Assembly (NCBI GenBank): GCA_963714095.1
Contig: OY970230.1
Location: 198,206 to 262,205, forward strand
Origin: Candidatus Gottesmanbacteria bacterium
GTDB lineage: Bacteria; Patescibacteriota; Microgenomatia; UBA10105; UBA927
Direction: 5' to 3'
Length of the DNA stretch: 64,000 bases
Both the position numbers and the translations under genes were made by a program. Below, piece by piece: positions 20,915 to 54,441 of this stretch; the first letter of the stretch is position 1, and the number at the start of each line of letters is the position of its first letter. The notes under the pieces were generated by a model, which had not been told where the DNA came from, did no database searches, and saw only the letters and a program-made list of their open reading frames with translations.

Positions 20915-21136
20915 CTATTTTACTTTATTGGGCCGCAGGAGGGAAATCAGAAGGAAAGAGAGCGTGAACGCAGCACCATACCAAGTCAGACGCTCGGCGG
21001 TAAAAAAAGTCCACGTAGCAAATAACGGAATCGCCAAAACCCAGCTTGCGAGGCCGGCAAACAGAAATAACCGGGGCTTTCTAATTAAAAGTAATACGAC
21101 AAATACCAGAAAAAATCCTATATCCTGCGGCTTCAT
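20915..21136 (-). CDS. small hydrophobic membrane protein (73 aa, 2-3 TM)
   Basis: Almost entirely hydrophobic (FFLVFVVLLLI, LFLFAGLASWVLAIPLFATWTFF, AAFTLSFLLISLL). Tightly packed between the UXS-like gene and galE with a 4-nt overlap. Confidence 0.5.
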   Translation of the reverse strand: MKPQDIGFFLVFVVLLLIRKPRLFLFAGLASWVLAIPLFATWTFFTAERLTWYGAAFTLSFLLISLLRPNKVK

Positions 21137-22077
21137 TGTTTGTAATATGCAATCGTTTTATGTAACCCATCTTCGACGGTCACCTTTGGCGTCCATTGTA
21201 AACGGGTTTTTATCTTTGTTATATCCGGCTTACGCTGGGTCGGATCATCCTCCGGCAATGCTTCAAAAGTAATGGGGGACGCCGATCCTGTCAGCACCTT
21301 AATTTTTTGAGCAAGATCTTTAACCGTGTACTCTTCCGGATTTCCCAGATTAAATACTTCACCTTTGAGGTTGTCGGCGAGCATAACCGCCAGAATTCCG
21401 GATACGAGATCCGAAACGTAACAAAATGACCGGGTCTGTGAACCGCTCCCAAATACCGTCAACGGTTTTTCTTCAAGGGCCTGGTTAATAAAATTTGAAA
21501 CCACACGACCATCATCTTTGCGCATCCTCGGGCCGTAGGTGTTGAATATGCGGATAATACGGGCATCAAGGCCGTATTTCCGAACATAAACCATTGTGAT
21601 TGCCTCTGCAAACCGCTTGGATTCATCGTAACATGCGCGGACTCCGTTAGGATTCACGTTCCCCCAATACAATTCTGTCTGCGGATGCTCCTTTGGATCC
21701 CCGTATACTTCCGATGTGGATGCCTCTAAATATCGTGATGTATGATCCCGCGCAAACTGCAACATATGAATGGTCCCAACTGAGTTGACCAACGCAATTT
21801 CCTCGGAGAGTTTTTTAAAATCCATCGGCGAAGCCGGAGACGCAAGGTTAAAGACGTAATCAATGTGTCCTAGAATATCGGGAGCTGACTCGATAATATC
21901 GTGGCGCAAAAACGAGAAATTTGAGTTTTGTTTCGCCGATTCAATATTTTTTTCAGATCCTGTCAGAAGATTATCTATGCACAATACTTTGTGCCCGAGT
22001 CCCAGTAACGCATCACAAAGGTGCGATCCGATAAATCCTGCCCCGCCGCTAACTACGCTGGTTTTTTGATCTGTCAT
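21133..22077 (-). CDS. UDP-glucuronate decarboxylase (UDP-xylose synthase / ArnA C-domain-like SDR)
   Basis: VVSGGAGFIGSHLCDALL...IDNLLTGSEKNI...STSEVYGDP...YDESKRFAEA matches the UXS family pattern. I chose the start at the ATG at 22077 (MTDQKTSVV); the listed ORF extends to 22116. Confidence 0.82.
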   Translation of the reverse strand: MTDQKTSVVSGGAGFIGSHLCDALLGLGHKVLCIDNLLTGSEKNIESAKQNSNFSFLRHDIIESAPDILGHIDYVFNLASPASPMDFKKLSEEIALVNSVGTIHMLQFARDHTSRYLEASTSEVYGDPKEHPQTELYWGNVNPNGVRACYDESKRFAEAITMVYVRKYGLDARIIRIFNTYGPRMRKDDGRVVSNFINQALEEKPLTVFGSGSQTRSFCYVSDLVSGILAVMLADNLKGEVFNLGNPEEYTVKDLAQKIKVLTGSASPITFEALPEDDPTQRKPDITKIKTRLQWTPKVTVEDGLHKTIAYYKQ

Positions 22078-22081
22078 GCAT

Positions 22082-22792
22082 CTATTGTAGCATACGGATA
22101 CGGATGGCTCCTGCAAGCGACCGCAGGAGTTCTTTCACGTTTGCATTGGAAGCTCCATGTGTTCTGTCCCGGAAACTTATGGGGACTTCCGTTATTCGAA
22201 AACTGTTCTGCTTCAGTTTATATGCTATTTCCGACAGTACGATAAACCCGGTTTCATGAAGGTGCACGCGCACCAAAAATTCCGCTGCTTTTCGGGAGTA
22301 TAATCGGAAACCGTTGGTATAATCCGTTAAGTGCAACCCAAGCCATATGCTTAACAAGGCGTTAATTACTCTGCTTTGAATAAGTCGACGCCACGGCCAT
22401 TTTACAATATGGCTCTGTTTAAGATACCGCGAACCGATAACCAAATCTGCCCCGCGGCGTACGGCTAAAAACCGTCCGAACTCTGCCGGTGAATGCGCTA
22501 GATCTGCATCCATCTCAAAACAATATTGTATTTCCTTATGTTTGAGGGCTTCAGCTAATCCCCGAATGACGGCACTCCCTCTGCCCATTTTGTGCTCGCG
22601 GGAAATAAGAACCACGTTGGGAAAATCCCTTTGAAGCATTCCTGACAGTTGTATTACTTCGTTGGCAGGAGAGTCATCAACAACCACGATCAGAGCATCC
22701 GGGAGGTATTTTTCTATATCTTTTAATAAAATACTTAAATTTTTTTGTTCGTTATACGCCGGAATAATGACTGAAATACCTTGATTATTCAT
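22082..22792 (-). CDS. polyprenyl-phosphate glycosyltransferase, GT2 (DPM1/ArnC-like)
   Basis: ISVIIPAYNEQKNL...VVVDDSP...GRGSAVIRG...FEMDADLAHSP has the DPM1-type MDADLSH-like motif. Length 236 aa, no TM tail. Confidence 0.8.
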   Translation of the reverse strand: MNNQGISVIIPAYNEQKNLSILLKDIEKYLPDALIVVVDDSPANEVIQLSGMLQRDFPNVVLISREHKMGRGSAVIRGLAEALKHKEIQYCFEMDADLAHSPAEFGRFLAVRRGADLVIGSRYLKQSHIVKWPWRRLIQSRVINALLSIWLGLHLTDYTNGFRLYSRKAAEFLVRVHLHETGFIVLSEIAYKLKQNSFRITEVPISFRDRTHGASNANVKELLRSLAGAIRIRMLQ

Positions 22793-26980: not shown

Positions 26981-26983
26981 ATG

Positions 26984-33266: not shown

Positions 33267-33381
33267 ATTGTTTCGTTGGTTCGTATGCAATACTATGTAC
33301 CTATTATATCCTGACTTTACCGAAAATCTTGATAATAAATAATAACACAGTTGCAAAAATTTAACTAAACCGCAAAGCCTT
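33267..33381. promoter_or_regulatory. probable divergent promoter region
   Basis: First strand switch in the locus. It lies between the likely start of the minus-strand GT-C gene and the plus-strand acyltransferase gene. No consensus boxes confidently identified. Confidence 0.25.
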
Positions 33382-35612: not shown

Positions 35613-35768
35613 AATAAAATTATAAATTCTCTTTTTTATGATCCTCGTAGCGTTGAGAATAATATTTCGCTATTATCGAACATATTTTAAAAATGAATGT
35701 ACGATATCTAAATAATTTGGTTATTTACAATAATATTAACTTCATCTCTGATATTTGTAGGGAAAATA
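35613..35768. promoter_or_regulatory. AT-rich intergenic gap, possible internal promoter
   Basis: 156-nt non-coding, very AT-rich spacer in a locus where most genes abut or overlap. No motif confidently assigned. Confidence 0.2.
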
Positions 35769-36455: not shown

Positions 36456-36577
36456 AGTTAAAATAGAATATTACGCAATCACCTTGATCACTTGAATATA
36501 AAATCACCTAATTTTAATTTCGTTTTATTCCAATATCTATCGTAATAGTTTTGCATATATGACAGCTATGATAAGAT
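36456..36577. promoter_or_regulatory. divergent promoter region with short direct repeats
   Basis: Lies between divergently transcribed 35769..36455 (-) and 36578..37765 (+). AATCACCT occurs at 36477-36484 and 36502-36509, with a variant GATCACTT at 36486-36493. Confidence 0.3.
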
Positions 36578-37765: not shown

Positions 37766-37773
37766 TAGAAAAC

Positions 37774-38823: not shown

Positions 38824-39983
38824 ACCTTCTGAAATGCTTGATCAAATAAATTATCCCAATTATAGGATTCCGCCATATGACGTGCAAGCAATCGGGCACG
38901 ACAGATTTTCTTTGAATCCTTCATAAGCGAAGTTAAGAGCGTAACCAACGCATTCTTTGTATATGGTATTACATACCCACAGCCTTTTTTAACAAGTTCT
39001 TTTGCAACGTATGGCACCTTTGTGGTGATAACGGGTATCCCTGCCAAAAGATATTGCTTTATTTTTGACTGATCAGCATAAAAGGAAAACGGATGATCAG
39101 AGGTATATAGTGCTAATCCAATGGCCGATTTTGAGAGTCGACTAATAATATATTTTTGGTCATCGGAAAATCCAAGGAAATGGACTCTCGACGTTACGCC
39201 ATACTCATGTGCAATTTTTTTTAGAGTACCTTCATAATACCCCGAACCGATAACAATCAGACAAACCTTTTTAAATCTGCCAGCAAGTTGAGGTAACGCT
39301 TCTATTGCCAGTTGTACACCCTGTTCTTTTGTTAAAAACCCAAGATATGCGATTTCAAATGGATTAAACACTGTTAAATGGCCCGCGGACCTTCGTGATA
39401 AGTGAACACCATGAGGAACCACTATTTGATGCGGAAACTTCACACCCCATCTTTGTTCCCTTGCTTTTATCATACGGGGTGTGAGATTCCATGTTGAAGT
39501 AGCATAACGAGCACATAACATCTCTAAATAATGATAAAAACGATTTACTATTTTATTCTTAAATCTAACAGGAACATAATCGATAACGTAATATATTGTT
39601 TTTTTTACAATACCTATTCGCATAAGAATAATTCCGCAAAATGCGTTAAGGTTACCGGCTCCTATAAAGTAATCGACACGCCCTTTTAAAACATAAACAG
39701 ACCAAAACAGTGTAACAAATGAATCTTTTAGATACGCAATAAATTCAGGAAGCCTCATTCGGATAAAATGACCGCGTTTTTGGAGAACACCGAATTCGTA
39801 TAACGAATACGAAGATTCTACTATTGGATTGTGTGCTGTTTGATATGGATGGCTAATGAAAAGCACTCTCAGGGCGTGCTTCTTTAATAAATAATCACGA
39901 ACTTCATGCGGTATACCATGAACAATATCATGGCAGACGACAACTGCGCTTTTTGAGGTAAAATCCATATTCATATCACTCAT
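38820..39983 (-). CDS. GT-B glycosyltransferase (GT4-like), paralogue of 36578..37765
   Basis: [35 protein letters not shown] aligns with DYFTVNAYTAWCGLILKRLHFVKRTIFWVWDYYP of the plus-strand gene. C-domain [20 protein letters not shown]. Confidence 0.7.
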
Positions 39984-40020
39984 ACCTCGTATAATATATT
40001 TCTACCATGGTAGTCTGAAG

Positions 40021-41694: not shown

Positions 41695-42709
41695 ATTTTC
41701 CCGAAAGAAAAGATGCGTAATAACGGTAATTCGGATACTTCATGATCATGGGAAATAGTTGTGAGTCTGCTTTTTTCCGTATAACCCGCTGAATATAGGC
41801 ACGTTGATGCATCGTTTTCCCAATTGAACGAATATTCCACCATATTGCCCGATGAATTGCCAACCATAATGAAAATTTACCTCTGAGGAGCATATACCAT
41901 GCCATACAAAGGGACAAAAACAGGTGAAACGGAACTATTTCAAAAATCGCGGGCGTACCAAGATTCTTGGTATAGGAATTAATCCTGTTTTTAAACGAAT
42001 GAAACTGAATAAATGCGTTATTCATGGAACTGCTCGTTGCGCCCATTTTGTGGTAAATAATGGATTTATATGCATACACAATTTTATACCCCGCAAGCCA
42101 CACACGGTGACACATATCAGTTTCCTCAAAATATGCAAAATAATCAGGATCGAATATATTTCCATTAATAGATATCAGGCTCAAAACAGATTTTTTAAAC
42201 ATCATACATGCGCCTTTGGCTGTATAGAGATAAATCTGTTTATCGTATTTCGGCTGGTCTTTTTTTCCGAAACCGTAATGATACAAAAAACCCGTCGGCG
42301 TCAGAAATGCGCCCACACTATCGTATGTATCGGGCCTATCCATAAGAAGAATTTTACTTTGAGCACACGCGATTTTTTTATCGGTTTCCAATATCTCAAC
42401 TAATTCCGTGAGAAACGTTTTCGTCACCCGCGTGTCGTTATTAAGAAACAAAACATATTTCCCTTTCGATTCCCTATACCCGATGTTATTGGCATCTGAG
42501 AAACCAAGATTCTTTTTGTTTATAAGAATTTTAGTTTTGGGGTACTGTTTTTTAACCCAATCCACCGAACCGTCTTTAGAAGCGTTATCAACGAAAATTA
42601 TTTCATAATTTTTATAGTCCTGTTTCGCAAGCGAACCAAAACATTCCGGCAACCACTGTATTCCGTTCCAATTTACTATAATAATAGATACTAACTGATT
42701 GATTTTCAT
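41672..42709 (-). CDS. glycosyltransferase family 2
   Basis: VSIIIVNWNG...EIIFVDNASKDGS...LFLNNDT, with a C-terminal hydrophobic segment. Confidence 0.9.
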   Translation of the reverse strand: MKINQLVSIIIVNWNGIQWLPECFGSLAKQDYKNYEIIFVDNASKDGSVDWVKKQYPKTKILINKKNLGFSDANNIGYRESKGKYVLFLNNDTRVTKTFLTELVEILETDKKIACAQSKILLMDRPDTYDSVGAFLTPTGFLYHYGFGKKDQPKYDKQIYLYTAKGACMMFKKSVLSLISINGNIFDPDYFAYFEETDMCHRVWLAGYKIVYAYKSIIYHKMGATSSSMNNAFIQFHSFKNRINSYTKNLGTPAIFEIVPFHLFLSLCMAWYMLLRGKFSLWLAIHRAIWWNIRSIGKTMHQRAYIQRVIRKKADSQLFPMIMKYPNYRYYASFLSGKYDYEEAV

Positions 42710-42771
42710 ATAAACGGACCTGTGTTCATTTATTTCTTATTGCAAATGCTAGAATTATATACGTATCAATA

Positions 42772-43587
42772 CTATCTTTTTGTAAATACGAACAATCCGC
42801 ATCCGTAATCCGAATTTGCTAAAATACGCTGAGCTATGTGCTCTCGAAAATTTCCTTGATCATCAACACCAGATAGTTCAACAAGTTGTAAATCTTTAAA
42901 ATAATCAAGTATTTGTTGGGGAGAATGGACCCTGTGGGCATTAAAACATAAACGTGGTTTTCCTACCGGAAGAGAAAAATAGAGTTTACCATGTTTAGAA
43001 AGCACACGAACGAGTTCTTTGCATGCTTTCTTTGTCCCATAAGGATCTAAACGATCACCATATCTGCCCAACCCAATATGTTCAGCAACGTGAAGGCAAG
43101 ATAAGGAATCAATTGAGTTGTCCCTAAACGGCAAATCAAGTATATTACCCTTCTGTGAATCAAGATTATGTAATTTTGCCTGGAGTGGACGTATATCAAT
43201 AAACGTTACTTTAGTGAAAGAAGATAAATGACCAACCAAAAAAATACTTGATCCTATATCATAGTGGTGTTTTACACGGGATTCATAAATTTTTTTACTT
43301 GCCCATGTATCCTGATAAAAATAGTGCTTATCAAAATCTGTTTTTGGTGTCCGGTCATAAATCATAGGATATGTATCAAGTAATGCAAGAGGCTCCGCCC
43401 CTTTCATGGCGGCGTATCGAATCATATCGTAAACGTACCGACCATATCGGGGTATCGAAATAAATAACCTTATTGGATCGATGATAGGATTAATGCTTCG
43501 ATATATAAAGTATTCAACATCAAGACGAACGTTATGGAATTTCTTCATAGGGAGGATTGTATAGTTTTTCCATTTCGTTGTATACAA
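42772..43587 (-). CDS. SAM-dependent methyltransferase-like protein
   Basis: LDLPFRDNSIDSLSCLHVAEHIGLGRYGD ... LVRVLSKHGKLYFSLPVG resembles class I methyltransferase motifs post-I to III. An N-terminal GxGxG was not clearly seen. Confidence 0.6.
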   Translation of the reverse strand: MYTTKWKNYTILPMKKFHNVRLDVEYFIYRSINPIIDPIRLFISIPRYGRYVYDMIRYAAMKGAEPLALLDTYPMIYDRTPKTDFDKHYFYQDTWASKKIYESRVKHHYDIGSSIFLVGHLSSFTKVTFIDIRPLQAKLHNLDSQKGNILDLPFRDNSIDSLSCLHVAEHIGLGRYGDRLDPYGTKKACKELVRVLSKHGKLYFSLPVGKPRLCFNAHRVHSPQQILDYFKDLQLVELSGVDDQGNFREHIAQRILANSDYGCGLFVFTKR

Positions 43588-43593
43588 ATCCCT

Positions 43594-44421
43594 TCATAAA
43601 GTTATCCTTCCAACTAAATAGCCAATCCCCAATACTCCCATTTCGCATGACTTCATAAACAACATACCTATTCCAACGAAAGGATTTGTAAATAATAGGC
43701 GAGGTTGAGAGAAAAATAAACCAAAACGGGAATGAATACTTCCCTGCCGCCGTCCATATTGTGCATTAGATTTCTTTTTCAGATATTGCGGCACTCGTTT
43801 ACCGTAATAATATTTCTTACTCAGAGTTTTAATAAGCGATAACCGTCCTTCATTATGGAAGATATATGAGGCAATTCGTCCGATAGAGTCTTTCCCGTAT
43901 CTTTCTTTTAGTCGCTGCGGCAAATCATAGTCTTCCGGTCCTGTAAGTTCTTCATCATAACCGCCGAGTTTAATAAATATATCCTTCCGGTAAAAACGTG
44001 CCGCTTCGATCCATTCAACACCTTCGTAAAAGGATCTCTCCAATGCCTTACAGTCTGACCAAAATCCGGCACCGACCGATCGCTCGGGAATAATAACGGC
44101 AGTGTATTTATTCGTTAGCACTGTTTTAACACACTCCAGAACAATATTGGGTGATAATATCATGTCGGCGTCTACGAAAAGAAGATAGTCTCCTTTTGCC
44201 TTTTTTGCACCAAAATTACGCTGGGCAGACCGTTCCGGCCCCCTATCATAGACCAAAGCATCCAGTTCTTCCGCTATATTTTTTGTCCCGTCTGAAGATG
44301 CATTATCTACAACTATCAATTCAATGAACTGATATGATTGTTTTTGTATACTGGAAAGGCATGCGCGAATATTAGCTTCCTCATTACGCGTTGTAACAAT
44401 GACAGATACGAGTGTTTTCAT
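43594..44421 (-). CDS. glycosyltransferase family 2
   Basis: I chose the start at the ATG at 44421 (MKTLVSVIVTTRNEEANI). Also VVDNASSDGT and LFVDADM. The listed ORF extends to 44670 but that extension has no GT2 homology and overlaps the divergent gene. Confidence 0.85.
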   Translation of the reverse strand: MKTLVSVIVTTRNEEANIRACLSSIQKQSYQFIELIVVDNASSDGTKNIAEELDALVYDRGPERSAQRNFGAKKAKGDYLLFVDADMILSPNIVLECVKTVLTNKYTAVIIPERSVGAGFWSDCKALERSFYEGVEWIEAARFYRKDIFIKLGGYDEELTGPEDYDLPQRLKERYGKDSIGRIASYIFHNEGRLSLIKTLSKKYYYGKRVPQYLKKKSNAQYGRRQGSIHSRFGLFFSQPRLLFTNPFVGIGMLFMKSCEMGVLGIGYLVGRITL

Positions 44422-45010: not shown

Positions 45011-46979
45011 CACGAATAGAAATATCTTTCCATTGACATGTGCCGAGATTCTGTTGAAATATCCGGATACCCTGAAGTTCCTCTCCTGCAAATTGTTCTA
45101 CTGCGCGTGAATCGGGATAGACATTTAGTTCACCGGCAAAATCCGCCGGTTGTTCAGAAAAACGATACCACGTAGTGCCGTCCGAGGAACCAAAAATATA
45201 CGCACTTGCGATAGGGTACGCACATTCGGGCTTAACAAAGTTAAACTCAATTCTTTTCACCCTGTTTTGCTTTTCCATACGCAATTCCAACAGATCAGAC
45301 GCCTTTTCCGTCACCTCAAACTTCTCATTTCTTTCATGGGTCATATCTACGCCGTGCGCAAGATGCAACGGGTCGTTTTTCCATATATACAGAAGCGGAA
45401 CACCATCAATCTGAACCGTATAAACCGGAGTGAGCATATTACGCAGAAAACGCATCCGGAAAAAATCATTGACGTTCAAACCCGGATATGTCAATTCCAT
45501 TACATATTCTCCTTGTTGCGCATAGAGGTCGGAATTCGTACCCACGAGGACTAAATCGTTCCGAAAATAGACCGTTGGAACCGCCGAAAAAATTGCGGTA
45601 CCGAGAGCTATCTTTGATCCGAGTTCGGCATGAGCATTAATCCAAAGAGCTCCCTGTTTATATGCATTTCCATACGTATTATTTGCGCCATCCAAACCAT
45701 ATTTCATGGCGCCGGGTAATCCTCCGATGAGTGCGTTATAATACACGTTTTCGTTCGGATGTAATTGAACCATTGTATAGATAATCGGTATATATCCCGA
45801 AATCGCAATCAGAATAATGATCTGCCGTATCGCCCGCCTTTTTTGCAATCGCATAACATGTTCAACTGCTACTCCACAAAGGAGTGATAAGGGGATCATA
45901 TACTCCATAATTTGACGCAGGCTGCCGCCATATAAATACTCGAGGGGAATTGTTGCCCGACCTACTGTAACAAAAATCCAAAGTAACCAAAGAAAAACCG
46001 CGCTGCTTTTACCGAAAGCATATTTCCAGCCAATAACACTCCCCGTCAAAAAAAACAGAAGCGTCGGAATTGGCATCGACGTGCATAACACTACTATGGT
46101 ATTCCAGTCTGAACAATGCACGAACCAGGGAATCGTACCAAAATAATATCCGCAGCTATTTGCGGCATTGGATACTCCCAAATAATACTGAATTACCTGG
46201 AATGTCTTCTGAATCGGCGATGACCACAATGCCGGATACGATATGAAAAACATCCCATATGCAATAATCGGAATAACGATACAGGAGGTAATAACTATCC
46301 GCCGGAGCGGTTTTTTCTCCCACCACCTCAGGGATATAAACCACGGAATGAGAATAAATACAGAAAATACTATATTGAACTTGGTCCCGAGGGATAATCC
46401 GAAAAAAATTGCCGAAACGAAAACCGGCCAATATTTTTTGTATTCAACGGCGAACCATAGAAAAAATAGCGCACCTGTATAATATGAAGCAACCAACGGA
46501 TCCTTAATATTAAAATGCTGTTCGGCAAACAACAGCGGCAACGTGATTAAGGAACACACCGAAAAAAAAGACGCTACAGGACCAAAAACCAGATATGACC
46601 AGCATCCGACTAGGACGACCATGAAGAGAGTCATAAGCAAAACATACACTTCATAGCTTTCAATATCTCCGACTAATCCAAATTTACCCCACAGAATTCT
46701 GTTTGTTGCCGCCATCAAAATGTCAGAAAGCGGCGGGTGACCAATAGTCATTTTCGTCGTCCATGCCCAATCTAACGGACTATTCTGGTAATAACTTAAC
46801 CTTTTGGATTTGAGATCAGGCTTGTCAGTTTTACCAGTTTCAAAAAATCGTAAATAGATATTTCCCCGGACCAAATGCTGATACGTGTCCCAATTTACAC
46901 CGTAATCGTAGATGGTTTTAAACGATAATACGGAAAAAACCGCGATAAGGAAGAGTGTCGGAAATATTCGCCATTTCAT
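44994..46979 (-). CDS. GT-C-like polytopic glycosyltransferase with ~170-aa C-terminal soluble domain
   Basis: I chose the start at the ATG at 46979, which forms an ATGA overlap with the stop of 46976..47680. First loop YDYGVNWDTYQHLVRGN ... GHPPLSD (ArnT/PMT-like PPL element). More than 12 TM segments. Confidence 0.62.
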   Translation of the reverse strand: MKWRIFPTLFLIAVFSVLSFKTIYDYGVNWDTYQHLVRGNIYLRFFETGKTDKPDLKSKRLSYYQNSPLDWAWTTKMTIGHPPLSDILMAATNRILWGKFGLVGDIESYEVYVLLMTLFMVVLVGCWSYLVFGPVASFFSVCSLITLPLLFAEQHFNIKDPLVASYYTGALFFLWFAVEYKKYWPVFVSAIFFGLSLGTKFNIVFSVFILIPWFISLRWWEKKPLRRIVITSCIVIPIIAYGMFFISYPALWSSPIQKTFQVIQYYLGVSNAANSCGYYFGTIPWFVHCSDWNTIVVLCTSMPIPTLLFFLTGSVIGWKYAFGKSSAVFLWLLWIFVTVGRATIPLEYLYGGSLRQIMEYMIPLSLLCGVAVEHVMRLQKRRAIRQIIILIAISGYIPIIYTMVQLHPNENVYYNALIGGLPGAMKYGLDGANNTYGNAYKQGALWINAHAELGSKIALGTAIFSAVPTVYFRNDLVLVGTNSDLYAQQGEYVMELTYPGLNVNDFFRMRFLRNMLTPVYTVQIDGVPLLYIWKNDPLHLAHGVDMTHERNEKFEVTEKASDLLELRMEKQNRVKRIEFNFVKPECAYPIASAYIFGSSDGTTWYRFSEQPADFAGELNVYPDSRAVEQFAGEELQGIRIFQQNLGTCQWKDISIRVIGFP

Positions 46980-47680
46980 ATTTTTTGCATACAGCAATAA
47001 ATATTGGTAAACCCCCGTTCCTTTTGATATTCCTCGTCCAATTTTCGCTCAAAAAATCGGGCGAAAAATGGGGATCTGCGGAAAATCCATTTTGATATAT
47101 AAAGATTTAAAATCCAGGCTGTTTCCCACCATGCACCGGCACATTGGATTTTAACAATCTTCATGCCTGACCCCCGGACATACGCGATAATCGAACCTAC
47201 CGTATAATGCCTGTGGCCAGTTAACCAAAACGCCGGATCCAATAACGTGCTAATAATAAACCGGTGCGGCGTAGAAATATAACACGCACCACCCCGTTTC
47301 AGTACGCGGGAAATCTCCCGAAACATTATATATTCCGTTCCTTTTGGAATGTGCTCGAGAACTTCCCACGATACGACTGTATCAAACGAACGTTTTGGAA
47401 AAGGTATTACTGTGGCGCTGCCGACGATAAAATGAATTTTTTTGTCATAAATAGACCGCTTCGCCGTACGAAAATCTTCCTCAGTCAACTCAGTTCCCAC
47501 GATAGATCGGACGTTATTTTTTTTCGCAAATACCTCAAACCACCCATACCCGCAGCCGATATCGAGAACTTTTTTATATGTTATATCACCGATCCGTACA
47601 AAAGAAGCCGTAAAACGCAGACGTTCATGAAGCGGAGCATATGGCGATACCTTGGTGATATTTTTCATACAGGGCGACAA
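46976..47680 (-). CDS. class I SAM-dependent methyltransferase
   Basis: Motif I VLDIGCGYGWFE, followed by FDTVVSWEVLEHI and LKRGGACYIST. Confidence 0.85.
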   Translation of the reverse strand: MSPCMKNITKVSPYAPLHERLRFTASFVRIGDITYKKVLDIGCGYGWFEVFAKKNNVRSIVGTELTEEDFRTAKRSIYDKKIHFIVGSATVIPFPKRSFDTVVSWEVLEHIPKGTEYIMFREISRVLKRGGACYISTPHRFIISTLLDPAFWLTGHRHYTVGSIIAYVRGSGMKIVKIQCAGAWWETAWILNLYISKWIFRRSPFFARFFERKLDEEYQKERGFTNIYCCMQKI

Positions 47681-47720: not shown

Positions 47721-49031
47721 TTATCGCAGGTTTTGTAATCGGAAAAATGATTCCAATGTTTTTTCTATATATCCGATCATTTGAACTGTAATACCGGGCC
47801 AGACTCCTATCCAAAATCCGTAATTCATAACCGTGTCTGAATTTTTCATAGATCCGGAAATACGTATATCTTTTCTACCGATATAGGCGGGGTGACGAAG
47901 AAGGTTTCCGGCAAACAGATTTCGGGTCCCGATGTTATGTTCCTCCAAATACTTGACCAATTCCAGCCGTGTAAATGGCGCAGTATCTTTGACAACCAGC
48001 ATAAATCCGAACCAGCAGGGGTCAGAGACCGGATCCCACTCGGGCAAAATAAAATATTTCTCATATTTTTTGAAAAAATCATATAGAAGGGTGAAATTTC
48101 TCTTACGCTTTTTTATAAATACGGGAAGTTTTTTTAACTGGGCAACGCCGATAGCCGCCTGAAAATCAGTCAGCTTGAGATTGTAACCGATTTGAGAATA
48201 AATATATTTATGATCGTATCCTTTCGGCAGTTCCCCAAGCTGCCAGCCAAAACGCCGTTTGCATGTATTGTCCTTCCCCGTATCGCACCAGCAATCCCTC
48301 CCCCAATCACGGAACTGACGCAGAGCCTTATGAATCAGAGGATTATTCGTCACAATCGCCCCGCCTTCGCCCATGGTAATCTGATGTGCCGGATAAAAAG
48401 AAAAGGTCCCGATATGGCCAAACGTGCTTAACTTTTTGCCCTGATATGTCGATCCGAGCCCGTCGCAGCAATCCTCAATAAACCATAGATTATACTTCAC
48501 TACGAGCCGCATAATGCCCTCTATGGGCAAAGGATTCCCGAGGGTATGTGCAAGCATGATAACCCTTGTTTTCTTCGTTATAGCCTGTTCTATAGCCTCA
48601 CACGTAGGATTTCTTGTCCCCAAATCAACATCTACGAATACCGGCACGCATTTATTCTGAATAATAGGATTAACGGTCGTCGGAAAGGCACACGCTGCGG
48701 CGATGATTTCATCTCCCGGCTTGAGTGCTTTTTTGCCGAATACGGAAGACGTGAGGGCGGTCAATGCCAGCAAGTTGGCGGAAGATCCGGAATTTACCAG
48801 TGTTACGTATCGTATGCCGAGATACGAAGCAAAATTCTTTTCAAACTTTTTGGCAAACTCCCCCTCCGTCCACCACCCGTCCAGCACTGCTTCCGCACCA
48901 CTGAGCAATTCCTGTTGGTCAAACACTTTCCCGGAAACCGGTACTGAAGACTTTCCGGGTTTAAATGGACGGGTGGAATATTTCTGACGTGCGTATGAAC
49001 GAATTAGCCCTGCAATATTTGCTGGCATCAT
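47721..49031 (-). CDS. rfbH: CDP-4-keto-6-deoxy-D-glucose 3-dehydrase (E1; RfbH/DdhC/AscC type, PMP and [2Fe-2S] dependent)
   Basis: DegT-family fold, but the Schiff-base Lys is replaced by His: FYPAHQITMGEGG, with H216 at nt 48384-48386 (checked; codon CAT). Cys189, Cys247, Cys249 and Cys257 give exactly C-X57-C-X1-C-X7-C. RfbH-type N-terminus PVSGKVFDQQELLSGAEAVLDGWWTEG. Confidence 0.9.
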   Translation of the reverse strand: MMPANIAGLIRSYARQKYSTRPFKPGKSSVPVSGKVFDQQELLSGAEAVLDGWWTEGEFAKKFEKNFASYLGIRYVTLVNSGSSANLLALTALTSSVFGKKALKPGDEIIAAACAFPTTVNPIIQNKCVPVFVDVDLGTRNPTCEAIEQAITKKTRVIMLAHTLGNPLPIEGIMRLVVKYNLWFIEDCCDGLGSTYQGKKLSTFGHIGTFSFYPAHQITMGEGGAIVTNNPLIHKALRQFRDWGRDCWCDTGKDNTCKRRFGWQLGELPKGYDHKYIYSQIGYNLKLTDFQAAIGVAQLKKLPVFIKKRKRNFTLLYDFFKKYEKYFILPEWDPVSDPCWFGFMLVVKDTAPFTRLELVKYLEEHNIGTRNLFAGNLLRHPAYIGRKDIRISGSMKNSDTVMNYGFWIGVWPGITVQMIGYIEKTLESFFRLQNLR

Positions 49032-49954
49032 ATATTTTTCTTCAAAATCGACTGAATTGTTTCTATAATTTGGTTGACAGTCAAACCGTTGGCCTCTCTC
49101 ATATATTCCTGCAAACCCATACCTTTCGTAAACCTATCGGGTACACCGATTCGCCTGAAAGGAATTGCATTACCGTGTTCCGCGAGTATTTCCGATACTG
49201 CGCTTCCTAATCCTCCGATTACACTGTGTTCCTCCAAAGTAAATATCGCTTTCGTGTATTTTGCGGAATCCAAAATCAATTGCTGATCTATGGGTTTTAT
49301 TGTATGCATACTGATCAACCGTCCCTGCATTCCCTGAATGGCAAGTTTCTCAACCACATCTATACCGCGTGCGACAAGCGTTGATGTTGCAATAAGACAA
49401 TAGTCCTTTCCTTTCCTCAGGATAATACCCTTACCAATTTTAAAATGCGGCGGCTTATCATACAAACGAGGTTCTCCGGCTTTCCCGATCCGCAGATAGA
49501 CGGGACCTTTGTGCATCAAGGCGGCCCGCGTCGCTAGCTCCGCCTCTATCGGATCTGCCGGGCAGACTATTGTCATGTTCGGGAGGGTTCGCATTATACC
49601 GATATCTTCCAGACTATGATGTGTATGTCCGTAGGGACCGTATGCGAATCCCGCCCCAACACCGACAATTTTAACATTCAAATTTTGATAGCAAATATCA
49701 TTCCTCACCTGTTCAAAATTCCGCATGGTAACAAACGGAATAATAGAATAGATAATAGGAATTTTTCCCTCAAGCGCCATACCCGCCGCGACCCCTGTCA
49801 TGTTCTGCTCGGCAATCCCCATATTAATATATTGCCGGGGCACCTCATGAATATACTTTTCAAAAACGGAATATCCCAAATCTCCTGTAAGCAGGATGAT
49901 CCGTCTATCTTGTTTTGCCAACTGAAGTATCGTTTTCGTAAATGCTATTCTCAT
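49028..49954 (-). CDS. transketolase, C-terminal (pyrimidine-binding/C-domain) subunit
   Basis: MGIAEQNMTGVAAGMALEGKIP and HHSLEDIGIMRTLPNMTIVCPADP are typical of split transketolase subunit B. ATGA overlap with the rfbH start. Confidence 0.9.
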   Translation of the reverse strand: MRIAFTKTILQLAKQDRRIILLTGDLGYSVFEKYIHEVPRQYINMGIAEQNMTGVAAGMALEGKIPIIYSIIPFVTMRNFEQVRNDICYQNLNVKIVGVGAGFAYGPYGHTHHSLEDIGIMRTLPNMTIVCPADPIEAELATRAALMHKGPVYLRIGKAGEPRLYDKPPHFKIGKGIILRKGKDYCLIATSTLVARGIDVVEKLAIQGMQGRLISMHTIKPIDQQLILDSAKYTKAIFTLEEHSVIGGLGSAVSEILAEHGNAIPFRRIGVPDRFTKGMGLQEYMREANGLTVNQIIETIQSILKKNI

Positions 49955-50796
49955 ACTGCTTCCAAATCCTTTAATGCTTTATCAAACTCCTTTTCCGTCG
50001 GAGCTTTATACTGGGACGAAACTGTGCCTATATACCTGGCTACACCCCCAAGACCTTTTATCGTATGAGCGATAATTACCGATGGCTTTCCGTTTCGGAA
50101 TGGAAGAGTTCTAAACGTTTGGATAACTTTCTTAATATTATGCCCGTCTACCTCCGCGACTTCCCAATCAAAACTTTGCCATTTTTCTTTCAACGGTTCC
50201 AGATCTAACACATCTTTGGTGAATCCGAAGCCCTGCAGCTTATTATAATCGACGATAGCAATAAGGTTATCCAGCTTATGATATCCGGCAAACAATATAG
50301 CTTCCCATGTAGAACCTTCATCACATTCACCGTCGGACAGTACAGCGAATACTCGATAAGCCTTTTTATCCTGTTTCCCTACCCACGCCATTCCTGCAGC
50401 CATGGGTAACCCGTGGCCCAGAGAACCGGACGAAATTTCAATACCCGCGATACCTCGTACCGAATGTCCCGGCAATAATCCGCCGTCATGCTCATAGCCT
50501 TTCAACAGTTTTTTATCAAAGAAGCCACGTTCTGCAAGTACGGCATACAGAGCTTTAGCGTCATGCGCTTTGCTGAATACCAGCCTGTCCCGACGTGGAT
50601 TCACCGGATCGCCGGGATATACCTTCATTATCCGAAAATACAACGCTACCAAAATTTCCACACACGATAGCGCGCCGCCCGTATGTGCACTCTGAGCCAG
50701 ATAGCTCATCGTCAGAATATCCCGACGGATATCTCTTGCAATAGTTTCTAACGTTTTTCTTTTACTACGGGTAATTGTTCTCATCTTCAGTATCAA
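49951..50796 (-). CDS. transketolase, N-terminal (ThDP-binding) subunit
   Basis: SAHTGGALSCVEIL, SKAHDAKALYAVLAERG, and the ThDP/Mg motif VLSDGECDEGSTWEAILFAGYHKLDNLIAIVDYN. Confidence 0.9.
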   Translation of the reverse strand: MILKMRTITRSKRKTLETIARDIRRDILTMSYLAQSAHTGGALSCVEILVALYFRIMKVYPGDPVNPRRDRLVFSKAHDAKALYAVLAERGFFDKKLLKGYEHDGGLLPGHSVRGIAGIEISSGSLGHGLPMAAGMAWVGKQDKKAYRVFAVLSDGECDEGSTWEAILFAGYHKLDNLIAIVDYNKLQGFGFTKDVLDLEPLKEKWQSFDWEVAEVDGHNIKKVIQTFRTLPFRNGKPSVIIAHTIKGLGGVARYIGTVSSQYKAPTEKEFDKALKDLEAV

Positions 50797-50921: not shown

Positions 50922-52034
50922 TTACCGATATCGAATAAGTTTTGTGAGCTTCTCACAAATGAATGCAACGTCCGATTCTGTTATATCGGCGGCAGACGGC
51001 AGGTTGAATCCATATTTCTCTACTTTTGCGGCTTCAGGATTAGGGAATCGGCGCTCGTACATGGGAAATCCGCTCATCCGGGGAAACGCGACCCTTCCAT
51101 GAATATTCCATCGTTCCAATTTACTTACCAAATCCTTATTGGATATTTTTTTTGAAGTGAGTAAAGCGGAGGGATATGCGTAATTACTGCGGCATCCGGG
51201 CCTTTCTTTAATGAGTTTTAATTCATGTACATCTTTCAGCCGTGAGTAATACCAGCCGAATATTCTCCGTTTTTTTGCAACGAGTTCTTCTATGCGCTCG
51301 ACCTGAGCAAGCGCCAGGGCTGCTGTCACATTTGCCATTTGATATTCATATCCCAGTGAATCACACCAAAAATTGAATTTCCTATTCGTTCTGCCCATGT
51401 TACTGAAAAGAATAGCTTTATCAAGGTATGCCTTATTATTTGTAATAAACATCCCGCCTTCACCAGAAACGGCGATTTTTGCCCCATGAAATGAATAGGC
51501 GCCGACGTCACCGAACGTGCCCACTTTCTTTCCTTTATATAAGGAGCCGAGCGAAGGAGCCGCATCTTCAATAACTTTAAGTTTATACTTTCCGGCAATT
51601 CGCATTATTTCATCCATTTCCGCCGGATGCCCGAAGGTATGAACGAGCATAATACCTTTCGTCTTTTTTGTAATTGCGCGTTCTACGGCTTTGGGATCAA
51701 TACACCATGTATCAGGATCAATATCAACAAATACAGGAGTTGCACCCGTATATGCGATCACGTGAGCGGTTGCGGCCCAACTGGTATCCACACATATTAC
51801 CTCGTCACCTTTTTGAAAACCGCAGACCAAACATGCAAGATGGAGTGAATGTGTTGCACAAAAACCGGCTAAAGAATACTTCGCACCGGTATAGTCACAC
51901 ATACGTTTTTCTAGTTTCTTTATATGCTTGTCAAATGTTGAGTACCACCCTGTCTTAACAGCATCGACAACATAATCAACTTCTTTTTGAGTCATCGATG
52001 GACCTGCAAAACTAATCCTTTTATATTTTTTCAT
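50922..52034 (-). CDS. DegT/DnrJ/EryC1/StrS-family NDP-sugar aminotransferase (PLP-dependent)
   Basis: Retains the catalytic Lys: AYSFHGAKIAVSGEGGMFITN. Length 370 aa. Confidence 0.9.
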   Translation of the reverse strand: MKKYKRISFAGPSMTQKEVDYVVDAVKTGWYSTFDKHIKKLEKRMCDYTGAKYSLAGFCATHSLHLACLVCGFQKGDEVICVDTSWAATAHVIAYTGATPVFVDIDPDTWCIDPKAVERAITKKTKGIMLVHTFGHPAEMDEIMRIAGKYKLKVIEDAAPSLGSLYKGKKVGTFGDVGAYSFHGAKIAVSGEGGMFITNNKAYLDKAILFSNMGRTNRKFNFWCDSLGYEYQMANVTAALALAQVERIEELVAKKRRIFGWYYSRLKDVHELKLIKERPGCRSNYAYPSALLTSKKISNKDLVSKLERWNIHGRVAFPRMSGFPMYERRFPNPEAAKVEKYGFNLPSAADITESDVAFICEKLTKLIRYR

Positions 52035-52719
52035 ACGGTAATTTCATAACTACACTATATCGTTTTATTGTTCCTTTATAACCTTTGGGTGCATTTTGCC
52101 ATTCAATTCTATCAGATTTAACAATCCTGATCATGGGCGTCCGTTTCACTTCAGTAAAATCAAGCTTTCGGTAAAGGCGAATGGCTCTTATATTATCAGA
52201 CGTTGTAGACAGCATATACGTTTTAATTCCAAATTCAACCCTGCCCCAACATATCATATGACGTATCGCATCTTCTATAATTCCGGGGTATAAATTCACA
52301 CCACGCACAATATTATCTATTTCGCAGATACGTTTTTGAAAATTAAAACGATACAAGCCGATATGACCGATGTACCGGTTTTTTACTTTTATCATAAATA
52401 AAATCCTGTCGGGTTCATTCACAACTTTATCGCGCAACCATTTTTCGGTTCCTTCCAAGGTAACCGGGAATATTGCAGGAAACCATTGCTCATGCTTTTT
52501 TCTCCATAACGCGAGTAGTTTAATAATTTTTTTATCAGTTCTCTGGTTGTCCGTAACGAGAACTAAATAATAACGAATTTTTCTAAAAATTATTTTAATT
52601 TGTAATTTTTTTCCGTGTTTAAGCAATGAAATTTTGTCTTTCACCAAACTGCTGATATCTCGCTCCGTTAATTTCATAATCAACCTAATGCTCTGTCTTT
52701 TATTCTTTCGATATATCAA
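52021..52719 (-). CDS. GNAT-family N-acetyltransferase (PseH/WecD-like sugar N-acyltransferase candidate)
   Basis: IGHIGLYRFNFQKRICEIDNIVRG ... AIRLYRKLDFTEV has a GNAT-like core. Overlaps the aminotransferase start by 14 nt. Confidence 0.6.
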   Translation of the reverse strand: MIYRKNKRQSIRLIMKLTERDISSLVKDKISLLKHGKKLQIKIIFRKIRYYLVLVTDNQRTDKKIIKLLALWRKKHEQWFPAIFPVTLEGTEKWLRDKVVNEPDRILFMIKVKNRYIGHIGLYRFNFQKRICEIDNIVRGVNLYPGIIEDAIRHMICWGRVEFGIKTYMLSTTSDNIRAIRLYRKLDFTEVKRTPMIRIVKSDRIEWQNAPKGYKGTIKRYSVVMKLPYEKI

Positions 52720-52723
52720 CTAA

Positions 52724-53686
52724 TTATTTCAAGATAGAATTATACCAGCGGCGGATTAAAGGAAGTGTGTTTTTAATCGAATATGTAGGTCTCCATCCCA
52801 GATTGATAATCTTCCCTGCATTCAAATGCTGGTACGGAATTTCGTTCTTCGCCGAGTTTTCTATAACATACGGTATTTTTCTTTTTAGTATCCTTTCTGT
52901 TTGCCTGATGAGAGCTATCACTGAACACGAGTCGCTGGAGGATAAATTAAATGCCTCCCCATTAGTTTTATCTCTATGTTCAAGAAGGAACAAATAGCCG
53001 GATACTACATCTTCAACGTAAATATAGTCCCGGACATATGAACCGTCACTTCGAATAACCAATTTTTCTTTCGTGACAACTGCTTTCATTATTCCCGGAA
53101 TAATCCGTGAAAAATTCAGATCACCTTCTCCGTAAATATTTCCTGCCCGTGTAACGACGATAGGCAAATGGTATGTTTTTGCGTATGCGTGTGCGAGAAG
53201 ATCCGTTGCCGATTTAGAAACCTCATATGGATGGTCGCCTCTCAAAGGATCCGTCTCGATATAGGGTTTCCTGCTTTTTCCGTAGCTTTTATCAGACGAT
53301 GCAACAATGACTCCTTTCACATGAGTAAAAAGTCGTGCCGCATCGAGAATATAGGTGGTACCCATGATATTAGTTTCAATTGTTTCCACGGGATTTTCGT
53401 AGGCAGTAGGCACTATTGCCTGAGCGGCTAAGTGGAAAATATAGTCAATTTCATATTTTGACACGATATCAAAAACCCGATCTTTATCTTTAAGGTCACA
53501 TGAAACAAGAACGGTATTTTTTGATAACCGTTCGGTCATGAAATATGAACGGGGGTCTAATGATCGAAACGGCACAAATACCGTTGCATGCCTCCCTAGT
53601 AAGGCTTTCACAAGATGACTTCCAACAAACCCCGTTCCGCCTGTGACCAGAATGTTCTTTCCTGTTAATCTTTCCATATTTTCCAT
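52724..53686 (-). CDS. NDP-hexose 4,6-dehydratase, CDP-glucose 4,6-dehydratase (RfbG)-like
   Basis: ILVTGGTGFVGSHL, PYEVSKSATDLL (YxxxK), and TRAGNIYGEGDLNFSRIIPGIMKA resembling the RfbG RAGNVIGGGD...R.iP element. It sits next to rfbF. It is shorter (320 aa) than the classical RfbG. Confidence 0.65.
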   Translation of the reverse strand: MENMERLTGKNILVTGGTGFVGSHLVKALLGRHATVFVPFRSLDPRSYFMTERLSKNTVLVSCDLKDKDRVFDIVSKYEIDYIFHLAAQAIVPTAYENPVETIETNIMGTTYILDAARLFTHVKGVIVASSDKSYGKSRKPYIETDPLRGDHPYEVSKSATDLLAHAYAKTYHLPIVVTRAGNIYGEGDLNFSRIIPGIMKAVVTKEKLVIRSDGSYVRDYIYVEDVVSGYLFLLEHRDKTNGEAFNLSSSDSCSVIALIRQTERILKRKIPYVIENSAKNEIPYQHLNAGKIINLGWRPTYSIKNTLPLIRRWYNSILK

Positions 53687-54441
53687 TCAGGATTCCGTTT
53701 CCATAATGTATTAAGACGTTCCAAATCCGCATATGTATCCATCGATTGCCAAAAACCTTTATGGACAAAAAGAGATAGCTCCCGGTCTTTAACAAGCCTT
53801 TTTAGTGCCTCATGTTCATATTCAGCCGGCCGCAGATAATTAAAAAACTTTTTATCAAATACCATAAATCCGCCGTTTACCCAATCCTGTAAAACAGGTT
53901 TTTCGACAAACTCCGTTACCCTGTGTTTAACATTTTGCCGGACCATTCCGTATTTACTTTTCGGATACACGCCAGTTATGGTACCGATTGTTTTTTGTTT
54001 TCTGTGAAACTGAACTAATTGCCGGATATTGATATTAGACACACCGTCCCCGTACGTAACCATAAAATCTTTATCAGTTTTCGGGATATAATCTTTTACA
54101 CGTATTATTCTTTCACCCGGAAGTGTCCCCTCTCCCGTATCTACAAAGGTAATTTTGAAATTATCGGCGGCAGATGGGTTTTTATGAAAAATCGCTGAGC
54201 CGGATTTTGTGGATAACGTAAAATTTTGTGAAAAATATTTTTGATTTAAAAAATACTCCTTAATCATATCCCCCTTATACCCGAGGGCAATGATAAAATC
54301 ATTAAACCCGTAGTACGCATACATTTTCATGATATGCCACAGGATTGGTTTATTGCCGACCAACACCATGGGTTTTGGTTTAAACTCTGTTTCCTCCTTT
54401 AATCTGTATCCTATACCGCCACATAAAATAATCGTCTTCAT
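53665..54441 (-). CDS. rfbF: glucose-1-phosphate cytidylyltransferase
   Basis: MKTIILCGGIGYRLKEETEFKPKPMVLVGNKPILWHIMKMYAYYGFNDFIIALGYKG is the canonical RfbF N-terminus. Length 258 aa. Confidence 0.92.
   Translation of the reverse strand: MKTIILCGGIGYRLKEETEFKPKPMVLVGNKPILWHIMKMYAYYGFNDFIIALGYKGDMIKEYFLNQKYFSQNFTLSTKSGSAIFHKNPSAADNFKITFVDTGEGTLPGERIIRVKDYIPKTDKDFMVTYGDGVSNINIRQLVQFHRKQKTIGTITGVYPKSKYGMVRQNVKHRVTEFVEKPVLQDWVNGGFMVFDKKFFNYLRPAEYEHEALKRLVKDRELSLFVHKGFWQSMDTYADLERLNTLWKRNPEWKIWKD

Follow-up and report, generated by a model that had tools for sequence, protein, structure and literature searches.

The stretch of DNA analyzed here, called the window below, covers 64 kb of a ~1.09-Mb contig from a Candidatus Gottesmanbacteria-like CPR bacterium, a tiny-genome organism of the groundwater type. 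It carries a glycan operon with the gene order rfbF-rfbG-GNAT-aminotransferase-TK_N-TK_C-rfbH-methyltransferase (Table 1). Several of these genes are tightly packed. The GNAT gene overlaps the aminotransferase gene, the end of TK_N and the start of TK_C share 4 nt, the stop of TK_C and the start of rfbH share another 4 nt, and the methyltransferase gene follows 40 nt downstream of rfbH. The rfbH gene is translationally coupled to the split transketolase, an association that an earlier note on this DNA had overlooked.

Table 1. Genes of the rfbH operon and two further genes of the window (positions counted from the first nucleotide of the window).
Feature	Position	Strand	Length	Family or structure matches
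Glucose-1-phosphate cytidylyltransferase-like (RfbF-like)	53665..54441	(-)	258 aa	PF00483, TIGR02623
NDP-hexose 4,6-dehydratase (RfbG-like)	52724..53686	(-)	320 aa	PF01370, PF16363, TIGR02622
GNAT-family N-acetyltransferase	52021..52719	(-)	232 aa	PF13302, PF00583, weak PseH-like match
DegT-family sugar aminotransferase	50922..52034	(-)	370 aa	PF01041, 330 bits
Split transketolase N-terminal ThDP-binding subunit (TK_N)	49951..50796	(-)	281 aa	PF00456
Split transketolase C-terminal subunit (TK_C)	49028..49954	(-)	308 aa	PF02779 (Pyr), PF02780 (TK_C)
E1/RfbH-type 3-dehydrase (rfbH)	47721..49031	(-)	436 aa, ATG start	PF01041, NF011936, 3BCX
Class I SAM-dependent methyltransferase	46976..47680	(-)	234 aa	PF08241, PF13649
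ColD-type dehydratase paralog without the Cys loop	55617..56807			
Nearest SDR ortholog	21133..22116			

The rfbH gene is a clear ortholog of the gene for a well-studied enzyme and adds a new member to a known family. A Pfam scan placed its product in the DegT/DnrJ/EryC1 family of fold-type I aminotransferases (296 bits), and the protein passed the NCBIfam RfbH equivalog model NF011936 with 650.5 bits (cutoff 423), the match running end to end (protein residues 4-432 on positions 11-438 of the 440 in the model). The E1 of Yersinia pseudotuberculosis (PDB 3BCX) aligned to residues 5-432 with E=1.6e-155 and 54% identity over 428 aligned positions, with one 1-residue gap near the C-terminus. In the translation (FYPAHQITMGEGG), His216 stands six residues ahead of the Glu of GEGG and pairs with H220 of E1; in the H220K mutant (PDB 3BB8) its partner is K220. 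Cysteines occur at positions 188, 189, 247, 249 and 257. A search with the regular expression C-X57-C-X1-C-X7-C gave a match from C189 through C257. C189, C247, C249 and C257 pair with C193, C251, C253 and C261 of E1 in a region of the alignment that is free of gaps; we take these E1 residues to be the cluster ligands, in the numbering of Agnihotri et al. 2004. His216 and the four cysteines were invariant in an alignment of 209 family members that represent many phyla, and C188, the neighbor of C189, was variable (C/N/S/D/T).

Because the alignment with E1 is in register and the residues are invariant in the 209 homologs, the match to the Cys pattern is not due to chance. The existence of a four-Cys motif in E1-type 3-dehydrases has been confirmed (PMC8987622). 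We propose His216 as the catalytic residue and Cys189, Cys247, Cys249 and Cys257 as the cluster ligands, and the protein is predicted to be a PMP- and [2Fe-2S]-dependent CDP-4-keto-6-deoxy-D-glucose 3-dehydrase, a true E1 (RfbH/DdhC/AscC) ortholog. The earlier note had described a DegT-fold protein with His216 replacing the Schiff-base Lys and with this same Cys spacing, and had assigned it to E1/RfbH; the open reading frame, the pattern match, the model score and the E1 alignment all agreed with that description. ColD, the GDP-4-keto-6-deoxymannose 3-dehydratase, has the fold and the catalytic His in common with the window enzyme but lacks an Fe-S cluster and needs no reductase. A ColD-type assignment was rejected, as the Cys motif is complete and ColD matched much less well (E=1.9e-55) than E1.

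The resemblance to the E1 enzymes of Yersinia pseudotuberculosis and Salmonella (AscC/DdhC/RfbH, with the partner E3 AscD/DdhD) includes the DegT fold, the His in place of Lys, the Cys spacing and the presence of rfbF- and rfbG-type genes upstream. Among the differences, E1 Cys257 is Lys253 in the window protein, and the genetic context is another. The E3 gene has no counterpart in the cluster or in the rest of the window, and the split transketolase, the aminotransferase and the GNAT protein of the CPR glycan operon stand where Yersinia and Salmonella have an abequose, paratose or ascarylose synthase.

Genes that could supply the substrate lie in the same operon. TIGR02623 was the best family of the RfbF-like protein (272.8 bits, full length), just under its cutoff of 300, and the CDP-glucose 4,6-dehydratase model TIGR02622 was that of the RfbG-like protein (189.5 bits, under the cutoff of 278). 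As both fall below the NCBIfam cutoffs, a nucleotide other than CDP could in principle be used. Of the 88 tabulated sources, 66 carry an RfbF-like gene beside RfbH, and most carry an RfbG-like gene there, the tally of 72 also counting other SDRs. The cytidylyltransferase-like and CDP-glucose 4,6-dehydratase-like genes in the operon support the CDP-3,6-dideoxyhexose-type intermediate that had been suggested earlier. The DegT-family aminotransferase of the operon keeps the Schiff-base Lys (FHGAKIAVSGEGG) at the position equivalent to H216, and its top NCBIfam match was the LegC-family aminotransferase model, below cutoff. The GNAT gene has a counterpart in the equivalent Gottesmanbacteria operon (L008). 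The rfbH gene of another locus (L001) is likewise followed by a methyltransferase gene, and the methyltransferase of the window is probably a tailoring enzyme.

The two transketolase subunits matched the split transketolase of Carboxydothermus hydrogenoformans, TK_C with PDB 6YAJ (E=1.3e-71) and TK_N with PDB 6YAK (E=4.8e-58). The same split transketolase and RfbH module was present in the window and at nine other loci, and its hosts are CPR bacteria, Acidobacteria, Anaerolineales, Stygiobacter, Margulisiibacteriota and a gammaproteobacterial MAG. We surveyed the neighbors within 10 kb of RfbH at 83 non-redundant loci, which came from the best 80 matches to the CPR query out of at least 592 found and are not a random sample. 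A ThDP enzyme lay within 10 kb at 51 of the 83, and YerE-like genes flanked RfbH at 41. Transketolase and YerE-like genes occurred together once, transketolase alone 11 times, YerE alone 40 times and neither 32 times (Fisher p=0.0035). The split transketolase and RfbH module tends to exclude YerE-like ThDP enzymes.

YerE and YerF of yersiniose A synthesis and ErwE and ErwF of erwiniose synthesis offer a parallel, as their ThDP enzyme works on CDP-4-keto-3,6-dideoxyglucose, and the acceptor of YerE and ErwE is exactly the E1 product (PMC9306805, PMC12247030). In the window too, a ThDP enzyme is genetically coupled to the predicted maker of an NDP-4-keto-3,6-dideoxy acceptor. It is, however, a two-subunit transketolase, whereas YerE belongs to the decarboxylase/ALS family, and no YerF-type reductase gene is adjacent, the aminotransferase and GNAT genes being found instead. 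Unlike most transketolase-type loci, the window has no SDR gene directly beside the transketolase genes; the nearest ortholog lies at 21133-22116 (Table 1). [quoted passage not shown] In the account of a 2025 review, these candidates all belong to secondary-metabolite clusters of Streptomycetes, none has been characterized and the reaction is still unproven (PMC12247030). The pair of the window type accompanies RfbH in operons for surface glycans, both in CPR bacteria and in a number of other phyla.

The 4-nt overlaps and the recurrent transketolase and RfbH module that tends to exclude YerE make it probable that the E1 product is an intermediate toward a C-branched sugar and that the 3,6-dideoxy-4-keto sugar is not the end product. 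A broader and more tentative model is that, in CPR bacteria as well as in several further phyla, an E1/RfbH that works without E3 feeds a dedicated split-gene transketolase, which would install a hydroxyacetyl-type branch at C-4. This would be a second way to C-branched surface sugars, based on a transketolase that takes the place of YerE.

Alternatively, the split transketolase could be a housekeeping enzyme of the pentose-phosphate pathway, the E1 product being directly reduced or aminated to a plain 3,6-dideoxy or 4-amino sugar. The closest structure (6YAJ/6YAK) is indeed that of a biochemically normal split transketolase, the host genome is small, as in other CPR bacteria, and the adjoining aminotransferase and GNAT protein could act on the 4-keto group. 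From our reading of the 6YAJ and 6YAK alignments, the phosphate-binding Arg/Ser/His/Arg positions are apparently kept in the pair, which would fit a housekeeping role; as a means of discriminating housekeeping from dedicated transketolases these residues were discarded, their apparent conservation being uninformative. We nevertheless consider this alternative rather unlikely, as the TK_N, TK_C and rfbH genes overlap, the module is nearly exclusive with YerE-like enzymes, and it adjoins RfbH in Acidobacteria, Anaerolineales, Stygiobacter and a gammaproteobacterial MAG, all of which are expected to own ordinary full-length transketolases.

No cluster-encoded E3, that is, a protein with an N-terminal plant-type Fer2 domain followed by FNR-like FAD and NAD domains, was found in the window. 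Pfam scans of all 55 non-shadow ORFs of the 64-kb window that reach 100 aa gave no Fer2, FAD_binding_6 or NAD_binding_1 protein. One NAD_binding_1 match at 17765-18325 (E=3e-4, 21.9 bits, cutoff 22) was considered as an E3 remnant and rejected, as the ORF encodes a GT4 glycosyltransferase N-terminal domain. Matches to ferredoxin-type Cys motifs in the window all fell within longer genes, in shadow ORFs that are out of frame, and were not retained as ferredoxin genes. Searches with real E3/FNR and LdpA-like proteins gave no phmmer match among the window ORFs that have 70 aa or more, and a six-frame tblastn against the raw window DNA returned noise only (best E=0.64), with positive controls at E=0; the E3-bearing locus L084 was found by the same methods. 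E3 was also absent from the ~4.8 kb past the right end of the window, which brings the DNA covered to about 6% of the contig.

In the survey, an FNR-family gene was present within 10 kb at 6 of the 83 RfbH loci and absent from the other 77, and the canonical Fer2-FAD-NAD architecture of E3 was seen at a single one (L084). Neither was found within 10 kb at any of the nine CPR loci. E3-type or FNR plus Fer2 proteins accompany RfbH at four loci (L084, L069, L082 and L083). The idea that E3-linked RfbH proteins form a subgroup nearer to the Yersinia E1 was dropped, as mean identity to that enzyme was 59.5% for the FNR-linked loci and 59.4% for those without an FNR or ThDP partner, with no clear separation. 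Unbiased clustering of all neighboring ORFs gave no other conserved redox partner, the largest unexplained clusters being rfbH shadow ORFs, glycosyltransferases, methyltransferases, SDRs and NeuB. Among the sampled loci, a missing E3 is therefore the usual arrangement and not an anomaly. The earlier note had reported the absence of E3 from the window, which stands, but the weight that it gave to this absence is to be corrected; its suggestion that the electron donor is encoded elsewhere or is different is consistent with all of our observations.

A precedent exists in SpnQ, the TDP-4-keto-2,6-dideoxyglucose 3-dehydrase of Saccharopolyspora spinosa, a PMP/[2Fe-2S] enzyme with the same cluster motif and without a dedicated E3, for which ferredoxin/FNR or flavodoxin/reductase pairs replace E3 (PMC8987622). 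By analogy, the window enzyme likely uses general reductase pairs in the same manner. The two systems are not identical: SpnQ has a TDP-2,6-dideoxy substrate and belongs to a secondary-metabolite cluster, whereas the nucleotidyltransferase of the window is cytidylyltransferase-like, and the window enzyme also passes the RfbH equivalog model. The TDP-sugar context of SpnQ, with its 2,3-dehydratase and 3-ketoreductase genes, was not found either, no window ORF having a Pfam match to a 2,3-dehydratase family.

One could also imagine that a dedicated E3, a Fer2 plus FNR flavoprotein of the DdhD/AscD type, is encoded unlinked elsewhere on the ~1.09-Mb chromosome and forms the textbook pair with the window enzyme. 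Our search covered about 6% of the contig, and the four loci named above do carry such proteins with RfbH. This is improbable, however, as FNR partners, where present, sit inside the cluster within 10 kb. Their absence from 77 of the 83 loci and from all nine CPR loci suggests that the majority of the family manages without a dedicated E3, and the genomes of CPR bacteria are strongly reduced.

The specific E1 reductase replacing E3 could instead be an LdpA-like Fe-S protein (two [4Fe-4S] clusters plus LdpA_C) encoded elsewhere in the genome. Such a protein of ~330 aa occurs in a conserved cassette, rfbF-rfbG-(SDR)-LdpA-like-HAD-HMGL-HpcH-YerE-like, in all five contexts inspected (Microgenomates, two metagenome contigs, Omnitrophica and Magasanikbacteria), where it is the sole redox protein of the cluster. 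Four of the five have a DegT gene downstream, and three of these genes are the size of RfbH (414-420 aa); that of the fifth context (L090) is out of range. For the window enzyme we regard this as quite improbable, since the LdpA-like protein is absent from the window at both protein and DNA level and from every transketolase-type locus, and none of the 120 homologs listed is on the contig of the window. It could equally serve the synthesis of the keto-acid donor of the YerE-like enzyme, and it has no solved relative beyond the ferredoxin domain.

A mode without any external reductant, in which the enzyme would act as ColD does (enamine hydrolysis and restoration of PMP through transamination) or would be a 4-aminotransferase, could be read from the lack of a reductase gene in the window and from the aminotransferase activity that SpnQ displays with PLP and glutamate when its reductase is absent, but E1 has no such activity under those conditions (PMC8987622). 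It is just as improbable, as the invariance of the four cysteines in 209 sequences points to selection for an Fe-S cluster, and the ColD-type dehydratase and the Lys-containing aminotransferase of the window (Table 1) already cover the two activities.

Taken as a whole, the model that we find likely is an E1 served by a general electron carrier and followed by transketolase branching and tailoring. The RfbF-like and RfbG-like enzymes of the operon would provide CDP-4-keto-6-deoxy-D-glucose, the E1 substrate. E1 would form the PMP-ketimine, and His216 would take the C4' proton with expulsion of the 3-OH. Reduction of the 3,4-glucoseen-PMP adduct formed in this way would proceed in two one-electron steps through the [2Fe-2S] cluster held by Cys189, Cys247, Cys249 and Cys257, giving CDP-4-keto-3,6-dideoxyglucose. 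We infer that the electrons most likely come, as for SpnQ, from a general low-potential carrier whose gene lies outside the window, for example a ferredoxin or a flavodoxin with its reductase. The split transketolase would then take the E1 product as its ketone acceptor and place a ketol branch of two carbons on C-4, the role that YerE has in yersiniose synthesis; this reaction and the nature of the final sugar are what we infer from the company of genes in the operon. The aminotransferase, the GNAT protein and the methyltransferase could tailor the sugar before glycosyltransferases attach it to the surface glycan.

The absence of E3 itself matters little, as the enzyme is a clear ortholog, the situation is common and a published precedent exists; the transketolase context of rfbH is more informative. 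The textbook pairing of E1 with E3 appears exceptional among the sampled RfbH loci. The recurrent LdpA-like Fe-S protein of the YerE-type cassettes is one concrete candidate for a physiological reductant of E1-type dehydrases. The rfbF-rfbG-TK_N-TK_C-rfbH set is a compact cross-phylum candidate for the transketolase-catalyzed branching of keto sugars, and it is small enough to be reconstituted. If the model is true, this would be the first split-gene transketolase for sugar branching outside Streptomyces secondary metabolism. The operon also indicates that CPR bacteria with reduced genomes devote resources to elaborate surface sugars of the deoxy or branched type.

The rfbH gene, which begins with ATG and encodes a 436-aa protein, adds a new member to the well-known E1/RfbH (DdhC/AscC) family of sugar 3-dehydrases. 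Its product falls into the DegT_DnrJ_EryC1 family (Pfam, 296 bits) and matches the RfbH equivalog NF011936 (NCBIfam) end to end at 650.5 bits, the curated cutoff being 423. The top PDB match was E1 of Yersinia pseudotuberculosis (3BCX, E=1.6e-155), followed by the E1 mutant H220K (3BB8), while the Fe-S-free 3-dehydratase ColD reached E=1.9e-55 only. The protein and E1 are 54% identical over 428 aligned positions, with one single-residue gap close to the C-terminus. The earlier note had based this assignment on a His in place of the Schiff-base Lys and on C-X57-C-X1-C-X7-C spacing; both its observation and its interpretation are correct. His216 lies in FYPAHQITMGEGG and aligns with E1 H220; Cys residues occur at 188, 189, 247, 249 and 257, and the stretch from C189 to C257 fits the pattern. 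C189/247/249/257 align with E1 C193/251/253/261, reportedly the cluster ligands (Agnihotri et al. 2004); C188 aligns with C192, and Lys253 occupies the position of E1 Cys257. His216 and the four Cys were invariant across 209 aligned sequences of the family, made up of E1, 88 proteins from genomic loci and 120 homologues from databases, but position 188 varied (Cys in 167, Asn in 23, Ser in 9, Asp in 8 and Thr in 2), and because of this the comparison supports C189, not C188, as a predicted cluster ligand. E1 and SpnQ, an E1-like 3-dehydrase, share the four-Cys [2Fe-2S] motif, the His replacing Lys and a need for external electrons, a requirement that ColD lacks (PMC8987622).

The claim that no E3 partner (DdhD/AscD-type, with Fer2 and FNR-like FAD and NAD domains) is encoded in the 64 kb also held in every search. 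By Pfam, none of the 55 non-shadow window ORFs with 100 aa or more was a Fer2, FAD_binding_6 or NAD_binding_1 protein. Queried with authentic E3/FNR sequences and one LdpA-like Fe-S protein, phmmer matched no window ORF of 70 aa or longer, and six-frame tblastn of the window DNA returned noise only (best E=0.64; controls E=0 on their own loci). Ferredoxin-type Cys motifs were confined to out-of-frame shadow ORFs, and a sub-threshold NAD_binding_1 match at 17765-18325(-) was rejected as an E3 piece, lying inside a GT4 N-terminal domain that stands alone beside a full-length GT4. A stretch of about 4.8 kb past the right end of the window (L092) contained only glycosyltransferases and unknowns.

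A missing E3 is the common condition of RfbH loci and no anomaly. We surveyed 80 diverse loci from species-representative genomes, of at least 592 confirmed, plus 7 CPR loci; among these, where the 80 are the most similar to this CPR query and enterobacterial E1/E3 clusters are under-represented, an FNR-family ORF lay within 10 kb of RfbH in 6 of 83 non-redundant loci and in none of 9 CPR loci, and near RfbH in 5 of the 52 whose two flanks each span 8 kb or more. The canonical Fer2-FAD-NAD architecture occurred in L084 only; the Fer2 domain was C-terminal in L069, L082 and L083, and L060 and L077 had an FNR without further E3 domains. Unbiased clustering of all ORFs neighbouring RfbH gave no other conserved redox partner. 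SpnQ, with the same cluster motif, lacks an E3 of its own and receives its electrons from general ferredoxin/FNR or flavodoxin/reductase pairs (PMC8987622), a published precedent. The electron donor of the enzyme studied here is most likely a general ferredoxin or flavodoxin system.

An LdpA-like protein of ~330 aa, which combines two [4Fe-4S] motifs with an LdpA_C domain, may be a functional substitute for E3, acting as a non-FNR donor to E1. Its gene directly follows rfbF-rfbG in 5/5 contexts examined, in cassettes ordered rfbF-rfbG-LdpA-like-HAD-HMGL-HpcH-ThDP enzyme (YerE-type; CPR, Omnitrophica and other hosts), where it encodes the sole redox protein, and an RfbH-size DegT gene lies downstream in L001, L088 and L089. 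The protein could equally serve keto-acid donor synthesis, and it is absent from the window (phmmer, six-frame tblastn) and from all loci with transketolase genes beside RfbH (TK-type).

Features of the window and of comparison loci (L-numbers); the first eight rows follow transcription order
Feature	Location	Strand	Remark
rfbF-like	53665-54441	-	
rfbG-like	52724-53686	-	
GNAT	52021-52719	-	
Lys-aminotransferase (DegT paralogue)	50922-52034	-	ordinary; Lys kept (FHGAKIAVSGEGG)
TK_N	49951-50796	-	N-terminal transketolase subunit
TK_C	49028-49954	-	C-terminal transketolase subunit
rfbH	47721-49031	-	His + Cys loop
SAM methyltransferase	46976-47680	-	
ColD-type 3-dehydratase paralogue, 396 aa	55617-56807	-	catalytic His-His (FYVGHHMSTVEGG), no Fe-S Cys loop
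LdpA-like genes	L001:3746-4741; L088:7001-7993; L089:7001-7996; L090:7001-7978; L091:7001-7990		
TK-type loci	L003, L005, L008		CPR
TK-type loci	L040, L055		Acidobacteria
TK-type locus	L013		gammaproteobacterial MAG
TK-type locus	L068		Anaerolineales
TK-type locus	L077		Stygiobacter
TK-type locus	L081		Margulisiibacteriota

The nearest RfbH homologues (65-81% identity) came from Microgenomates-group CPR (Nealsonbacteria, Gottesmanbacteria, Amesbacteria). DUF4012, DUF5667 and many PMT_2-type membrane proteins, typical of CPR genomes, occur in the window, which is almost entirely one minus-strand glycan-biosynthesis region. Its three DegT-family genes are each in a different active-site state. 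The top PDB match of the ColD-type paralogue was ColD itself (2GMS, E=4.7e-61), and its presence alongside a ManC-like gene (5647-6729) and two SDRs (19900-20910, 21133-22116) suggests that this glycan region also encodes a separate route to a GDP-3,6-dideoxyhexose (colitose-like). A GT4 gene at 7786-8782(-) is split or frameshifted, since its Glyco_transf_4 (N-terminal, 8261-8782) and Glycos_transf_1 (C-terminal, 7786-8271) domains lie on separate overlapping ORFs. Five large ORFs (760, 619, 580, 986 and 576 aa) stand in a row mid-region at 22814-33356(-), three without Pfam match, one with a weak DUF5667 and the last with a sub-threshold PMT_2; 40021-41694 and 18327-19940 also lack Pfam matches. 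G+C is 36-40% in 32000-44000 vs 44-49% in most other parts, and plus-strand acyltransferase_3 (33382-34593) and GT4 (36578-37765) genes occur in this otherwise minus-strand stretch, which may be a horizontally exchanged, variable section of the glycan locus. NeuB-family (PEP-condensing, sialic-acid-synthase-like) genes lie a few kb from RfbH in 15 sampled loci (e.g., L078:12333-13376), and none is found in the window.

The split-gene transketolase at window:49028-50796(-) is translationally coupled to rfbH, with 4-nt overlaps at TK_N/TK_C and TK_C/rfbH. The pair looks canonical by sequence, and its closest match is the split-gene transketolase characterised from Carboxydothermus hydrogenoformans (6YAK E=4.8e-58; 6YAJ E=1.3e-71). 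The SDR adjoining the TK genes in most TK-type loci is absent here, and the Gottesmanbacteria locus L008 matches the window in gene content, aminotransferase and GNAT included. A ThDP-dependent enzyme was encoded within 10 kb of RfbH in 51 of the 83 loci (37/52 with full flanks); YerE-like decarboxylase-family enzymes were present in 41/83 and both TK subunits in 9/83. With the window counted in, one locus had both types, 11 TK only, 40 YerE only and 32 neither (Fisher p=0.0035). Several phyla share the TK+RfbH module, which is seldom found together with YerE-like enzymes.

The sugar-branching enzymes YerE and ErwE use as ketone acceptor exactly the E1 product, CDP-4-keto-3,6-dideoxyglucose (PMC9306805, PMC12247030). 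According to a 2025 review (PMC12247030), miharamycin and amipurimycin biosynthesis and 13 Streptomycete clusters are the only cases in which split-gene transketolases have been suggested to branch keto sugars, and none of these enzymes has been characterised; our literature search found no link between split transketolases and rfbH or dideoxyhexoses. From the YerE/ErwE acceptor, the recurrence of the module and this literature, we infer that the E1 product would be an intermediate, branched at C-4 by the TK pair of the window. YerE-type branching relies on a decarboxylase-family ThDP enzyme, whereas a two-subunit transketolase stands in its place here. The pair found in the window and in TK-type loci is a candidate for keto-sugar branching of the TK type in organisms other than Streptomyces, and the most novel defensible reading concerns this coupled split transketolase, not E1 itself.
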